Shown: one piece after another, positions 2,487 to 6,663 of the stretch
Layout of the letters: every line of letters starts with the position of its first letter
Numbering within the stretch: the first letter of the stretch is position 1
From: a virus
Lineage: Duplodnaviria > Heunggongvirae > Uroviricota > Caudoviricetes
Reading direction: 5' to 3' (one strand)
DNA: 6,663 nucleotides
IMG/VR virus record: IMGVR_UViG_2711768001_000005
Position numbers and translations under genes: made by a program
The notes under the pieces: model-generated
Seen by the model: the letters and a program-made list of their open reading frames with translations, nothing else
The model's database searches: none
What the model was told of the DNA's origin: nothing

Positions 2487-3308
2487 TTACCTAGTTACCT
2501 TTTTTAACTGCCGCTCAGCCCATGCTTCTTCAATATCAAACCGGGTCACCAGCGCATCATAAAATTTCTTAACTGTTTTTTCCCATGACGCGCGTGTTAT
2601 CTGGTTTGTCACCTCGCATATAGCATTAAATGCCTCCGTTGATGGTAGTCTTTCATAGCCACGACCACCACAACGCTGGCAGTCTCTGATAACAGGCATA
2701 CCACGTTTTACCGACTCTTCACGATGAATGGCGACACCACGCCCACGGCAATCCTTACAGGCGGTGGAAACCTCACCCTTTCCGCCACACTCCGGACAGG
2801 CAACTTTTACCACCTCCCTGACTTTTTTCCATTCTTCCCAGTAAGACGGATACACACCTTTCGTACACTTTGCCCATACCGGCGGCTTACCATCCGGATA
2901 CTGGATCTTGTTTGTAAAAACCTCGCTTTCAATAAATTTTTTTCCGTGACAGCAGGGGCACTGTTTTTTGCTCGCCGCGCTACGGGCATAATCTTCAAAC
3001 GCATACGAAGCCATAATACGCATCACTGCCGGTTTTATTTCTGCCGGGAGTTTTCTTAACGCCGCCACGCGATCACACCGACTGAGTGCATATTCTGTCA
3101 GCAATTCTGTTGCCCGCTCTCTGTCATTCATACTAATGCCCATTTTCCCAAGGAACGCAGAAACCCCCATCTCAGCCCGATTCTGTGTCATGCCCTGCGC
3201 GGCCATCACATCAGTGATACTCAGCGCATCTTTCGACGTTGAGGCCGATGCATCAGTCAGGCCGGGGGATTTTGGGGAGTAGTATTTCGGTAAATCTTCC
3301 AGTTTCAT
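2487..3308 (-). CDS. Q: Late-gene antitermination protein Q (Qin quuQ-like, cysteine-rich)
   Basis: 273-aa ORF with several CxxC pairs (CPCC, CPEC, CKDC, CQRC); position between rusA and a pR'/tR' unit; ATGA overlap with the rusA stop. Confidence 0.8.
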   Translation of the reverse strand: MKLEDLPKYYSPKSPGLTDASASTSKDALSITDVMAAQGMTQNRAEMGVSAFLGKMGISMNDRERATELLTEYALSRCDRVAALRKLPAEIKPAVMRIMASYAFEDYARSAASKKQCPCCHGKKFIESEVFTNKIQYPDGKPPVWAKCTKGVYPSYWEEWKKVREVVKVACPECGGKGEVSTACKDCRGRGVAIHREESVKRGMPVIRDCQRCGGRGYERLPSTEAFNAICEVTNQITRASWEKTVKKFYDALVTRFDIEEAWAERQLKKVTR

Positions 3309-5213: not shown

Positions 5214-5220
5214 ACGCGTT

Positions 5221-5253
5221 GAAAATAAAAACAAAAACCCGCCGAAGCGGGTT
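5221..5253 (-). terminator. Rho-independent terminator with a UUCG tetraloop
   Basis: Minus-strand RNA AACCCGC-UUCG-GCGGGUU (plus 5236-5253) followed by UUUUUGUUUUUAUUUU (plus 5221-5235). Confidence 0.65.
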
Positions 5254-5338
5254 AAGTGTGGGTGCATTGAGGATGCCTGCCCCATCAGAGGTGGCGAGGG
5301 ATTTCTCCCCCGCCTGGTCTCTTACTCCTCAGGTTCGT

Positions 5339-5689
5339 NNNNNNNNNNNNNNNNNNNNNNNNNNNNNNNNNNNNNNNNNNNNNNNNNNNNNNNNNNNNNN
5401 NNNNNNNNNNNNNNNNNNNNNNNNNNNNNNNNNNNNNNNNNNNNNNNNNNNNNNNNNNNNNNNNNNNNNNNNNNNNNNNNNNNNNNNNNNNNNNNNNNNN
5501 NNNNNNNNNNNNNNNNNNNNNNNNNNNNNNNNNNNNNNNNNNNNNNNNNNNNNNNNNNNNNNNNNNNNNNNNNNNNNNNNNNNNNNNNNNNNNNNNNNNN
5601 NNNNNNNNNNNNNNNNNNNNNNNNNNNNNNNNNNNNNNNNNNNNNNNNNNNNNNNNNNNNNNNNNNNNNNNNNNNNNNNTGAGACAGAT
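5339..5689. other. Assembly gap (351 N)
   Basis: Uninterrupted run of n; the true length and content are unknown. Confidence 0.97.
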
Positions 5690-5744
5690 AGCCTCAAGCA
5701 CCCGCTGCAATTCTACTTAACTCTCCTTTTCCCGCAAACCGTTT

Positions 5745-5828
5745 TTATCCCCAGCGGCAAATCGAATACACCACCAGCGCCACCGCCATCGCAATTCCTA
5801 CCGTTGTTAATGCTTCAGGCCAGGTCAT
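5745..5828 (-). CDS. 27-aa hydrophobic peptide ([27 protein letters not shown]), putative single-pass membrane peptide
   Basis: ATG at 5828 overlaps the TGA of the upstream 114-aa ORF (ATGA); GGAGG lies 10 nt upstream; the hydrophobic core of about 17 residues is flanked by W/P and CRWG. Not in the ORF track because it is under the length cutoff. Confidence 0.4.
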
Positions 5829-6169
5829 CGTAAAATATCCTCCACGCTTATCAGTCCGTTCCGCTCCAGATAACTCATCGCCTTATCCGGTAATTTGCAG
5901 TCTGGCTTCGCTTTCCTCAGTTGCCAGGTTAACTGCTTTACCAGCATGGTTAACTCATCGACCAGACGCTGATATCCCACTGGTTTGTATTCATGCAATT
6001 TACCGGCTGGCTCTGCTGCCAGCGATACCAGTGCGATTTCCAGAACAGCAATATCCATCTTATATGTGCGGATGATGTCATGGTCGATTGTGCCCGGTAT
6101 GCACAGTCTCTGTGCTTCAATAGTCTCCTCTGCGTGAGCTATTAACTGCTCTCTGGTAAAAGTCGTCAT
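5825..6169 (-). CDS. Hypothetical protein (114 aa), paralogous over its N-terminal part to the upstream 55-aa protein
   Basis: ORF with ATGA overlap to the upstream gene; shares the MTTxTxE N-terminus and the IAL(V/A)SL(A/E)AEP motif with the 55-aa ORF. Confidence 0.65.
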
Positions 6170-6333
6170 GCCGTAGCCCCTTCTTGATATTTTTCAAACC
6201 AGAACACAACCGGCTCTGCTTCCAGCGATGCCAGCGCAATCCGTGCCAGTTCCATTTGTTCACCACGGGTAAGCCCGTTTTCAAGCGGGTTTTTAATGAA
6301 CAATTCAATACGTTCTTTGGTAATAGTGGTCAT
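6166..6333 (-). CDS. Hypothetical small protein (55 aa), short paralog of the 114-aa protein
   Basis: ATG at 6333 with AAGGAG 6 nt upstream; translation [55 protein letters not shown]; stop overlaps the next start. Absent from the ORF track (under the cutoff). Confidence 0.6.
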
Positions 6334-6343
6334 GTGTTACTCC

Positions 6344-6542
6344 TTAACCCGCAGTGCTTTCAACTGATGAGGGGAACAAAATCTTTTCATCAAACCCTGC
6401 ATTCATATCATGAACAGCAACACACCAATCCATCGACGAACGATTATCAAGAGCCTCCATGATTTCATCCATGCGGCGTAGGTCATACAGGTAAATGCTT
6501 TTATCGCCAATGGTGTAAAAGCCAATTTTTTTCGGTGATGGA
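6344..6542 (-). pseudogene. 3' fragment of a gene whose 5' part is replaced by the IS end
   Basis: The reading frame is open from the IS end (6543) to TAA at 6344-6346, encoding ...PSPKKIGFYTIGDKSIYLYDLRRMDEIMEALDNRSSMDWCVAVHDMNAGFDEKILFPSSVESTAG. The ORF-track start at 6574 lies inside IS sequence, so that ORF is an IS/flank chimera. Confidence 0.45.
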
Positions 6543-6663
6543 TGAGGTGTACTGGCAATAGCGGACACTACCATTTGTTCTTTTTTTAAGCAGCCATCTG
6601 ATGATATTTTTCCCTGAAGGCTGCCGGGGAGATATTCCCCAGACGAGAGTGACGACGCTGACG
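6543..6663 (-). mobile_element. Right end of a second, inverted copy of the same IS3-family element (body lies right of the window)
   Basis: Exact reverse complement of 1-121; the match stops at 6543 (6542 is A where C would be required). Confidence 0.6.
6586..6663 (-). CDS. IS3-family transposase C-terminal fragment (inverted copy)
   Basis: Reverse complement of 1-78; same translation RQRRHSRLGNISPAAFREKYHQMAA. Confidence 0.55.
   Translation of the reverse strand, partial: RQRRHSRLGNISPAAFREKYHQMAA

Follow-up and report, generated by a model that had tools for sequence, protein, structure and literature searches.

The window, that is, the whole stretch of 6,663 nucleotides analysed here, carries three small open reading frames (ORFs) of 55, 114 and 27 codons one behind the other on the minus strand, and all three were confirmed (Table 1). 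The preliminary description of this DNA had reported ATGA overlaps at both junctions and an SD motif for each ORF, and this was borne out by the coordinates and the sequence, with 4-nt overlaps at 6166-6169 (55-aa and 114-aa ORFs) and 5825-5828 (114-aa and 27-aa ORFs). The SD-ATG spacing of the 27-aa gene, 9 nt, is longish here. On the upstream side lies an 87-aa gene; in other genomes the next gene directly after it is a single intact gene of Eaa or DUF551 type. The masked run of N just downstream of the 27-aa gene is a hokD/mok/sok locus, as seen in the identical locus L001. A possible promoter, TTGCGG-16-TAGAAT, may lie in the segment between the two, although the consensus scan did not call it. 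The locus belongs to the early region of a lambdoid (lambda-like) E. coli prophage, in its mosaic accessory part (nin/ea-type). Its genes are transcribed from the minus strand together with the early genes, and they lie between the replication genes on one side and hok/sok, DUF968, RusA and Q on the other.

Table 1. Features of the three-gene locus and its surroundings, in window coordinates.
Feature	Position	Strand	Remarks
Upstream 87-aa gene	6344-6607	-	phrog_1714; function unassigned
SD-like motif, 55-aa ORF	6340-6345	-	AAGGAG, 6 nt before ATG, read in the sequence
55-aa ORF	6166-6333	-	residues 1-41, Eaa-type N-module; 42-55, HNH-endonuclease C-terminal tail
Direct repeat copy 1, 29 nt	6212-6240	-	conserved 3' end of N-module; recombination linker
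Crossover zone for 55-aa ORF	6208-6224	-	two homologous arrangements overlap here
SD-like motif, 114-aa gene	6177-6183	-	GAAGGGG, spacing 7 nt, read in the sequence
114-aa gene	5825-6169	-	minimal Eaa-like modular protein: N-module, linker, C-module
Direct repeat copy 2, 29 nt	6009-6037	-	within the 114-aa gene
SD, 27-aa gene	5838-5843	-	GGAGGA, spacing 9 nt; inside V-E-D codons of the 114-aa gene
27-codon gene	5745-5828	-	predicted single-pass membrane micropeptide; ATG overlaps upstream TGA as ATGA
Region upstream of and first bases of hok/sok cassette	5681-5744	-	conserved hok/sok RNA from ~5703
N-masked stretch	5338-5679	-	by synteny: sok target region, mok, hokD type I toxin gene

The 114-aa protein belongs, as a minimal member, to a modular and uncharacterised family of phage proteins that is loosely labelled Eaa/EaA. 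Its N-module, which begins approximately with M-T-T-x-T-K-E and ends with IALxSLxAEP, is present in the 55-aa protein as well. The N-terminal likeness of the two products noticed earlier was real: both N-termini matched the same PHROG families (60, 660, 3323 and 5117), each from residue 1, BLASTP aligned residues 1-41 of the 55-aa protein with residues 1-54 of the 114-aa protein at 33% identity (pairwise E=1e-5), and the two genes share a 29-nt repeat. The C-module, ELTMLVKQL...CKLPDxAMxYLxxxGLIxxEDxLR, makes up the C-terminal end of the 114-aa protein (phrog_660, E=8e-43) and is absent from the 55-aa protein. The alignment of the family has 30 invariant columns. The C-module occupies the C-terminus in 682 representative clusters with varied N-terminal parts, which include Ead_Ea22 and dATP/dGTP pyrophosphohydrolase domains. 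In the structure model of the 114-aa protein, a helical hairpin (helices 6-26 and 30-52, pLDDT ~90) is followed by a low-confidence linker (53-63) and by the C-module, consisting of helix 64-87 and two short helices; the C-module is helical and coiled-coil-like. A Foldseek search of this model against the PDB retrieved generic helical hairpins only (best E=0.42), and a sequence-profile search of the PDB retrieved only designed coiled coils, matching residues 67-87.

N15 gp45, ST64B Sb32 and database entries named 'Eaa/EaA protein', all of them uncharacterised early proteins of modular build from lambdoid phages and their relatives, share both modules with the 114-aa protein and the N-module alone with the 55-aa protein. 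Compared with them, the 114-aa protein is minimal and has no middle domain, and the 55-aa ORF is both truncated and chimeric, its tail coming from an HNH gene. Homologues combine the same parts differently: P0031 joins the head of the 55-aa protein to the tail of the 114-aa protein, P0066 joins the N-module of the 114-aa protein to DUF551, and P0090 is an 'Eaa protein'. Many of the DUF551 (PF04448) proteins encoded in E. coli and Shigella prophages (300 aa and 185 aa, for example, upstream of other copies of the peptide gene) share the N-module and the genome position, and the 27-aa gene comes next, again overlapping by ATGA, whereas neither of the two proteins of the window contains a DUF551 domain (Pfam, E<=0.1). 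The PGAP label 'DUF551 domain-containing protein, partial' on fragments in the frame of the peptide is an annotation artefact. Pfam, NCBIfam and PADLOC scans of the 55-, 114- and 27-aa products gave nothing significant, the PADLOC models did not match these products or their neighbours at E<=0.1, and a literature search on Eaa and DUF551 returned nothing relevant.

The likeness of the two N-termini had been read as a tandem duplication in which the second copy gained a C-terminal extension. This was not supported, since the 55-aa ORF spans the junction of two arrangements found elsewhere. Positions 6542 to 6212/6208 of the window match L012 and L047, where the same 87-aa gene precedes one intact Eaa- or DUF551-type gene, and positions 6224 to 5744 match phage ArgO145 (L004), which has an HNH, 114-aa and 27-aa gene arrangement. 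At the joint the two homologies overlap by 13-17 nt. The intact 121-aa HNH endonuclease of ArgO145 ends in the same 14 residues as the 55-aa ORF, whose head is common to P0031 and P0090 and whose match to phrog_2118 covers residues 31-54 only. No HNH domain was matched by Pfam in the 55-aa protein, which keeps only the last 14 residues of the ArgO145 protein. By these sequence alignments, the 55-aa ORF is a recombination by-product, in which about 41 first codons of a second Eaa-type gene are joined in frame to the 14 last codons of an HNH gene. The two copies of the direct repeat are 86% identical and each encodes IALxSLxAEP, and the 101-aa gene of L012 corresponds to a deletion between both copies. 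The stretch coding for IALxSLxAEP serves as a recombination linker.

The three overlapping genes are a recombination patchwork and not a dedicated three-part system. They had been suggested to form a toxin/antitoxin-like or host-takeover module, that is, one co-evolving cassette in which the 'paralogs' partner the peptide. All three genes are coupled by ATGA and their arrangement is near-identical in ~315 genomes, as such a cassette would have it, but ATGA overlaps are routine in phage operons, and the frequency of the arrangement reflects the spread of one prophage type because the copies are near-clonal (>=99% identical). Moreover, the parts assort independently (the complete arrangement is in ~315 genomes, the 27-aa gene taken by itself in 1634), the 55-aa ORF is a chimera formed at a junction, and the products have no PADLOC, Pfam or NCBIfam match. 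A dedicated cassette is hence largely refuted and very improbable. As to conservation in relatives, the ATGA overlap proved nearly universal for the 27-aa gene, whereas the triad was not kept together. A looser link remains, in that the 27-aa copies examined sit 3' of clusters of N-module genes.

The 27-codon ORF is a real autonomous micro-gene, whose start, length and stop are kept and which is under purifying selection. Loss of the frame, or randomness of its synonymous sites, in homologous loci had been set beforehand as a refuting test; the frame was found conserved and its synonymous sites non-random. The 29 distinct intact DNA variants encode 12 peptides, every one of 27 codons. They differ by 79 synonymous and 58 non-synonymous substitutions where 25% synonymous is expected (p=6e-16), a statistic that represents few independent lineages because most variants are closely related. 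By codon position the substitutions number 29/22/86, and the control frames gave 23/108 and 22/109 synonymous/non-synonymous changes. Some pairs of variants differ by 8-9 synonymous and 0 non-synonymous changes. Conservation of the ORF is thus far above chance. The 84-nt gene moves as a unit together with an SD embedded in the last codons of the preceding gene: mosaic breakpoints fall exactly at its two ends, 5745 and 5828, and each of the other upstream partners had a GGAGG or GGGG SD within its final codons.

Some copies were defective. Codon W3 is replaced by amber in 22 IMG/VR contigs as well as in phages POCJ13 and phiSTEC1589, and by opal in a single contig, while the copy of one genome has a 1-nt deletion. 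The gene is therefore dispensable. Copies with the amber codon look like pseudogenes, because G11 is lost and their few internal changes are non-synonymous; functional read-through of the stop codon at W3 was rejected on the same observations.

The gene was detected in 1634 of 5426 complete E. coli genomes (~30%), mostly intact, at 3110 places of which 163 are on plasmids, with up to 7 intact copies per genome. It is carried by Stx-converting phages of O157:H7, and it also occurs in the virulent phage Av-05 and on ~98-kb non-mobilizable plasmids. A scan of species-representative genomes with a degenerate pattern gave 32 matches, of which ~27 were chance matches; the true ones came from E. coli, Shigella flexneri and Escherichia sp. 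alone, apart from two very small contigs that are likely contaminants. The 84 nt of the gene are below the default minimum gene length of Prodigal, and the RefSeq/PGAP annotation of the identical locus L001 has no entry for it. Exact 27-mers have already been deposited as 'putative prophage protein' or 'bacteriophage protein'. The grouping of two exact 27-mers with DUF551 proteins of 121-185 aa was treated as a clustering artefact, as the retrieved sequences of those proteins did not contain the peptide. Literature searches with peptide strings gave no match, and no published experimental support for translation or membrane location was found. In the supplements of the Sakai (EHEC) Ribo-seq small-gene paper (PMC5597208), neither the peptide nor its DNA was present.

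The surroundings of the gene vary on both sides. At least 4 unrelated C-termini precede it and at least 8 different sequences follow it, several of which are hairpin-plus-T terminators; it is often the last gene before the terminator, the hairpin often lying within ~10 nt. Coupling to the upstream gene by ATGA is nearly universal, and every copy examined forms the 3' end of a cluster of N-module genes (>=12 arrangement types). This constancy could mean that the peptide and the N-module (Eaa/DUF551-type) proteins form a two-part system, for example for membrane tethering or regulation, linked at the level of the family and not of the gene. Each copy examined indeed stands directly after an N-module gene or one gene beyond, including those in Av-05 and the ~98-kb plasmids, and the near-universal coupling agrees with such a pairing. 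However, the domain encoded just upstream varies (Eaa C-module, DUF551, Zn-ribbon/coiled-coil, ...CRAAMLKKKGMNQ), and therefore no constant partner surface lies beside the peptide gene. Many members of the family also lack the peptide gene: the ORF after N15 gp45 has 18 aa and is unrelated, and the gene after ST64B Sb32 is 834 nt long. Shared descent of a mosaic block could explain the linkage. We therefore consider a two-part system unlikely.

Next to the 27-aa gene, hok/sok is the actual toxin-antitoxin system of the locus, and it is a cassette separate from the 27-aa gene. The Rfam RF01794 match covers L001 positions 6849-7024, and 7024 corresponds to window position 5703, which is 42 nt past the stop of the ORF (5745), so the ORF lies outside the conserved hok mRNA/sok region. 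The same synteny with the 27-aa gene was seen for hokW/mokW/sokW of 933W. Since the 84-nt block immediately precedes the hok leader, both here and in 933W, it could be kept as DNA or RNA, acting as a hok promoter or leader, as a translated leader tuning a downstream terminator or promoter, or as a C-terminal anchor accessed by frameshifting. The close downstream hairpins would suit the second of these proposals, and a frame open upstream of the ATG together with one existing frameshift fusion (P0011) would suit the third. On the other side, the ORF occurs without hok in many contexts, the hok/sok RNA model begins only beyond the stop codon, substitutions are concentrated at third positions in this frame only, the ATG and SD are invariant, and a slippery heptamer was present in none of the upstream contexts. 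Retention as DNA or RNA is thus extremely improbable. The role as a hok promoter was rejected on the occurrence without hok, the synonymous excess and the start of the RNA model, and programmed frameshifting into the TM frame was rejected on the invariant ATG and SD, the absence of a slippery site and the unrelated upstream contexts.

Like Hok, TisB, DinQ, ShoB and hokD/sok (hokW/sokW of 933W), the 27-mer is a short, hydrophobic, single-helix peptide, and its gene adjoins hok/sok here and in 933W. The peptide could accordingly be membrane-damaging, either type-I-toxin-like or lysis-assisting, so that the host membrane would be depolarised or weakened by its production in lytic growth. In size and hydrophobicity it resembles those small membrane toxins, its frequent place as the last gene before a terminator would be suitable, and the recurrent nonsense alleles at codon 3 could reflect selection against a costly product. 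Unlike the type I toxins, however, the 27-mer has no similarity to Hok and occurs widely without hok. The consensus scan of 5745-5828 found no plus-strand promoter (consensus promoters only), and Rfam placed no family over the ORF. In essentially all contexts the gene has the ATGA overlap and an exposed GGAGG SD, so that it has a strong SD and is coupled within an operon, unlike a separately repressed toxin mRNA. With up to 7 intact copies in one genome, and with PADLOC and Pfam toxin matches absent, a damaging product appears improbable. In these scans no toxin-antitoxin features were found for the 27-aa gene.

Among the window's 37 ATG-ORFs of 20-40 aa, the 27-mer ranked first in hydrophobicity (Kyte-Doolittle 19-mer mean 2.16, residues 6-24), which agrees with its earlier description as a single-helix membrane-type peptide. 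All variants keep a hydrophobic core over residues 6-24, and the mean there was 1.85-2.75 in 7 diverged peptide variants. The core is flanked by E or D at residue 5 on the N-side and by R25 on the C-side. Hence, the 27-mer is predicted to be a single-pass membrane protein. The consensus of the peptide is M-[TSN]-W-P-[ED]-A-x3-[VL]-G-x3-[AS]-x5-[YF]-[SA]-x-[CF]-R-W-G, with a conserved G11xxxA15 motif; G11 and Y21/S22 vary in the most diverged copies. Its only Pfam match was to the glycine-zipper region of DUF883_C, at a sub-threshold level (E=0.029, 14.5 bits with a cut-off of 27). Small bacterial inner-membrane proteins of less than 50 aa, such as KdpF, AcrZ and MgtS, modulate larger membrane proteins. 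The 27-mer resembles these proteins and the ElaB/DUF883_C tail anchors in size, single TM helix, small-xxx-small motif and aromatic or Arg C-terminal anchor, but it is phage-borne and mobile and has no significant homology to them.

Based on these features, we propose that translation of the 27-aa gene would proceed by coupling or re-initiation at the overlapping ATGA, and that the peptide would span the inner membrane with WPEA, its N-terminus, on the outside and RWG, its C-terminus, on the inside. It may act by intramembrane helix packing through the conserved V10-G11-x-x-x-A15 face, the partner being a host or phage membrane protein or the peptide itself, and candidate outcomes are exclusion, membrane modulation and mild toxicity. 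As a speculative and rather unlikely extension, the 27-mer could be a previously unstudied, widespread phage membrane effector, which stands at the end of Eaa/DUF551 clusters and works with those modular proteins at the inner membrane. An 84-nt micro-gene would then be moving between temperate lambdoid phages, plasmid prophages and virulent rV5-like phages, and its roles might include exclusion, counter-defence or control of a host membrane protein.

Taken as a whole, the locus is probably best explained (probability of about 0.68) as a mosaic early region that holds a minimal Eaa-like 114-aa protein, a chimeric 55-aa ORF and an autonomous 27-codon membrane micro-gene. Tandem similar small genes need not be duplications or functional cassettes, and the locus is a clean worked example of the assembly of a lambdoid accessory region, in which the IALxSLxAEP coding 'linker' and the SD-containing gene ends are the recombination joints and in-frame chimeric ORFs mimic paralogs. 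Standard pipelines skip the 27-codon gene although it is in ~30% of complete E. coli genomes. A common and clearly selected phage micropeptide is a cheap, well-defined target for small-protein biology, with its membrane binding partner and its effect on induction, exclusion and host fitness as the questions to address.

The window comes from a lambdoid prophage of E. coli, and its genes lie on the minus strand. In the order of transcription, an 87-aa gene (phrog_1714) is followed by the ORFs of 55, 114 and 27 aa, an N-masked stretch, a 94-aa gene, the genes for DUF968, RusA and antiterminator Q, a small ORF with a winged-helix-like product, a DNA methylase gene, and three tRNA genes with the sRNA STnc100. 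The ATGA start/stop overlap at each of the two junctions and the separate SD-like motif of each ORF, as given in the preliminary description, were borne out by the coordinates and the sequence (Table). The 27-mer is the most hydrophobic product among the short ATG-initiated ORFs of the window, and its ORF is unannotated by RefSeq at the identical, unmasked locus L001. The tRNA genes and STnc100 (region 300-815) lie 3' of the DNA methylase gene, as is usual at the entry to the late region in Stx-like lambdoid prophages. The Q antiterminator (273 aa) contains two Antiterm (PF03589) stretches and a sub-threshold match to a DnaJ-type CXXCXGXG zinc finger.

Table. Positions of the features in the window
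Feature	Position	Strand	Basis or remark
STnc100 sRNA	300-489	minus	
tRNA gene	569-642	minus	
tRNA gene	659-732	minus	
tRNA gene	743-815	minus	
Q antiterminator	2487-3308	minus	
"ORF" through Ns	5219-5833	plus	ORF listing; artefact
N-masked run	5338-5679		L001 6659-7000
27-aa ORF	5745-5828	minus	ORF listing
SD-like motif of 27-aa ORF, GGAGGA	5838-5843	minus	within V-E-D codons of 114-aa gene
114-aa ORF	5825-6169	minus	ORF listing
SD-like motif of 114-aa ORF, GAAGGGG	6177-6183	minus	sequence reading
29-nt direct repeat	6009-6037 and 6212-6240		86% identical
55-aa ORF	6166-6333	minus	ORF listing
SD-like motif of 55-aa ORF, AAGGAG	6340-6345	minus	sequence reading

The 55-aa and 114-aa products had been read as paralogs from a tandem duplication. 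Their N-termini are indeed similar (33% identity, E=1e-5, pairwise comparison), and the 29-nt direct repeat codes for their common IALxSLxAEP motif; the tandem duplication itself was not upheld, since the 55-aa head comes from an Eaa/DUF551-type gene and the tail from an HNH gene. Residues 1 to 37-41 are identical to the starts of intact longer genes, i.e., P0031 (101 aa), the Salmonella 'Eaa protein' P0090 and 300-aa DUF551 proteins, and the last 14 residues are the C-terminus of an intact 121-aa HNH endonuclease of phage ArgO145, where the endonuclease gene lies before the 114-aa gene. At the DNA level, 6542->6208/6212 corresponds to loci with one intact Eaa- or DUF551-type gene after the same 87-aa gene, 6224->5744 matches ArgO145, and the two homologies coincide only at 6208-6224. 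These homologies mark the 55-aa ORF as a junction chimera produced by recombination. The 101-aa gene of loci such as L012 corresponds to a deletion between the two IALxSLxAEP repeats, so the conserved stretch coding for this motif serves as a linker in recombination. All of the window's arrangement was found in ~315 of 5426 complete E. coli genomes, with 99.8-100% identity among the matches listed, as if a single type of prophage had spread. Single-indel fusions of the 55-aa with the 114-aa ORF (P0001, P0002 and P0024, 137-168 aa) and of the 114-aa with the 27-aa ORF (P0011, 143 aa, from a 5.27-Mb genome contig) were also observed; either sequencing errors or true frameshift alleles may account for them, and they indicate that the adjoining frames are open across the junctions.

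Scans of the 55-aa and 114-aa products against Pfam, NCBIfam and PADLOC gave no match. Both match the same function-unassigned PHROG families via residues 1 to ~50, and in its C-terminal half the 114-aa protein also matches PHROGs 660, 924 and 8171, at their C-terminal ends. Comparison of homologues showed a family built of an N-module, an optional middle region and a well-conserved C-module (ELTMLVKQL...) as the end; the N-module is variable inside and conserved at its start (MTTxTKE...) and end (IALxSLxAEP), and in P0066 it is fused to DUF551. A C-module profile search of 1.84 billion representatives returned 682 clusters; in the best 150 of these the module nearly always forms the extreme C-terminus of a protein of 50-395 aa, and some C-module proteins have N-terminal Ead/Ea22 or dATP/dGTP-pyrophosphohydrolase domains. 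For the 114-aa protein, AlphaFold modelled the N-module with confidence as a hairpin of helices and gave one long and two short helices for the C-module; no meaningful relative came from Foldseek or from a profile search of the PDB. Named relatives are N15 gp45, ST64B Sb32 and deposits called 'Eaa/EaA protein', and the 114-aa protein is a minimal member of this uncharacterised modular phage family. In N15, too, a tiny ORF (gp45.1, 18 aa, MITTRKCMPAAAVSQETK; L130, NC_001901.1 38890-38946) comes after the gene for gp45, which has both modules, and overlaps it by ATGA; the gp45.1 product is non-hydrophobic and shows no relationship to the 27-mer.

Intact copies of the 27-aa ORF comprised 29 distinct DNA variants encoding 12 peptides, each of exactly 27 codons. 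On a minimum spanning tree of these variants, 79 changes were synonymous and 58 non-synonymous (expected synonymous, 25%; p=6e-16), with 29/22/86 changes at the three codon positions, while the two other frames gave 23/108 and 22/109 as controls; certain variant pairs differ by 8-9 synonymous and 0 non-synonymous changes. The frame is thus conserved with non-random synonymous sites, as expected of a real gene; this micro-gene is autonomous, widespread and usually unannotated. A role as a translated leader only was rejected because selection acts at the amino-acid level, as was a frameshift-accessed anchor, since ATG and SD do not vary, slippery sites are absent and the genes upstream have no relationship to each other.

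NCBI already has exact 27-mers, named 'putative prophage protein' (E. coli 042) or 'bacteriophage protein', and longer calls of 45 or 52 aa start at an upstream in-frame ATG present only in the DUF551 context. Clustering at 90% protein identity put two exact 27-mers together with DUF551 proteins of 121-185 aa, from whose retrieved sequences the peptide is absent, and PGAP labels short fragments of the frame 'DUF551 domain-containing protein, partial'; automated annotation is likely to be misled by both. Among the defective copies are some with W3 changed to amber (TGG->TAG; two diverged lineages in 22 IMG/VR contigs, with the common upstream gene end ...PEPPKEVRQ, and POCJ13 and phiSTEC1589) or to opal (TGG->TGA; one contig, otherwise window-identical) and some with a 1-nt deletion; an in-frame 6-nt duplication leaves the frame intact. 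In the W3-nonsense copies (L126, Shigella phage POCJ13; L128, phiSTEC1589-Stx1c; L136; L139-L160) the remaining frame is open. Since the main amber lineage lacks G11, these copies are probably pseudogenes.

Mosaic breakpoints coincide with the ends of the 27-aa ORF. Window 5681-5828 is common to 933W-type Stx phages, there behind another upstream gene, 5744/5745-5900 to ArgO145-type phages, there ahead of another downstream region, and the bare ORF has matches of 79-83% identity in further contexts. At least four unrelated C-termini precede it (...ISVEDILR, ...PEPPQEVNQ, ...NIEQEVNR and ...AAMLKKKGMNQ), nearly always with the ATGA overlap and GGAGG or GGGG in the last codons of the upstream gene, and at least eight different sequences follow, including several terminators of the hairpin-plus-T kind. 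Of the 5426 genomes, 1634 have the ORF, at 3110 places (163 on plasmids) and in up to 7 copies per genome. By a strict pattern, species-representative genomes with the gene were Escherichia and Shigella only, and one fragment is deposited from Salmonella. Short contigs in two assemblies from outside the enterobacteria, Xanthomonas pisi DSM 18956 (L092, 431 bp) and Acinetobacter idrijaensis MII (L107, 369 bp) carry an exact E. coli-phage DUF551 gene end plus the 27-aa gene, and are almost certainly contamination.

All copies examined lie directly after an N-module gene or one gene further, including those on ~98-kb non-mobilizable plasmids and in the virulent, rV5-like Escherichia phage Av-05 (Vequintavirinae; L127, KM190144.1 74413-74493), whose intact gene (MTWPEAFTTVGVVMAVAFAVYSVCRWG) is ATGA-coupled to that of a 220-aa protein with the same N-module. 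Hence, the pair is not restricted to temperate phages. The converse fails, as N15 gp45 and ST64B Sb32 show. The proposed coupled cassette does not hold as such, the unit being a three-part mosaic; the N-module gene always nearby in the copies examined speaks for a looser form of the idea.

At L001, the sequence corresponding to the masked run shows a hokD type I toxin gene with mok/sok, so by synteny the run is predicted to hide a complete hokD/mok/sok type I toxin-antitoxin locus. A match to Rfam RF01794, the model of the conserved hok/sok RNA region, at L001 6849-7024 reaches window position 5703, and hok/sok begins 42 nt past the stop of the 27-aa ORF; together these make hok/sok the sole recognisable toxin-antitoxin system here. 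The 27-aa ORF was rejected as hok regulatory DNA, being found without hok, lying outside the RNA model, which starts past its stop, and showing frame-specific selection. The three-ORF mosaic lies beside hok/sok and is separate from it. The toxin-antitoxin-like role suggested earlier was not supported as type I for the 27-aa gene, in view of its coupling within an operon and of a consensus promoter scan and Rfam search that showed no antisense element over the ORF.

In every peptide variant, residues 6-24 form a single hydrophobic stretch (Kyte-Doolittle mean 1.85-2.75) between an N-terminal M-x-W-P-(E/D)-A and a C-terminal (C/F)-R-W-(G/R/W) cap, and the 27-mer is probably a single-pass membrane peptide. 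The positive-inside rule is an established basis for predicting membrane topology, and by it the N-terminus is likely out and the C-terminus in. V10-G11-x-x-x-A15, kept in nearly all intact copies, is a small-xxx-small motif, typical for intramembrane helix packing, in which it may thus take part. At the end of early accessory operons, translational coupling would yield the 27-mer, which would go into the inner membrane and act by packing on another membrane helix, i.e., of a host protein, a phage protein or itself.

The original observation was thus confirmed and its interpretation supported in part: the 'cassette' turns out to be mosaic, made up of a junction chimera (55 aa), a minimal family member (114 aa) and an autonomous micro-gene (27 aa). 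Nothing here is categorically new: databases already list the sequences as hypothetical proteins, and phages are known to encode small membrane proteins. As a target for study, the 27-aa gene is well supported and very common.
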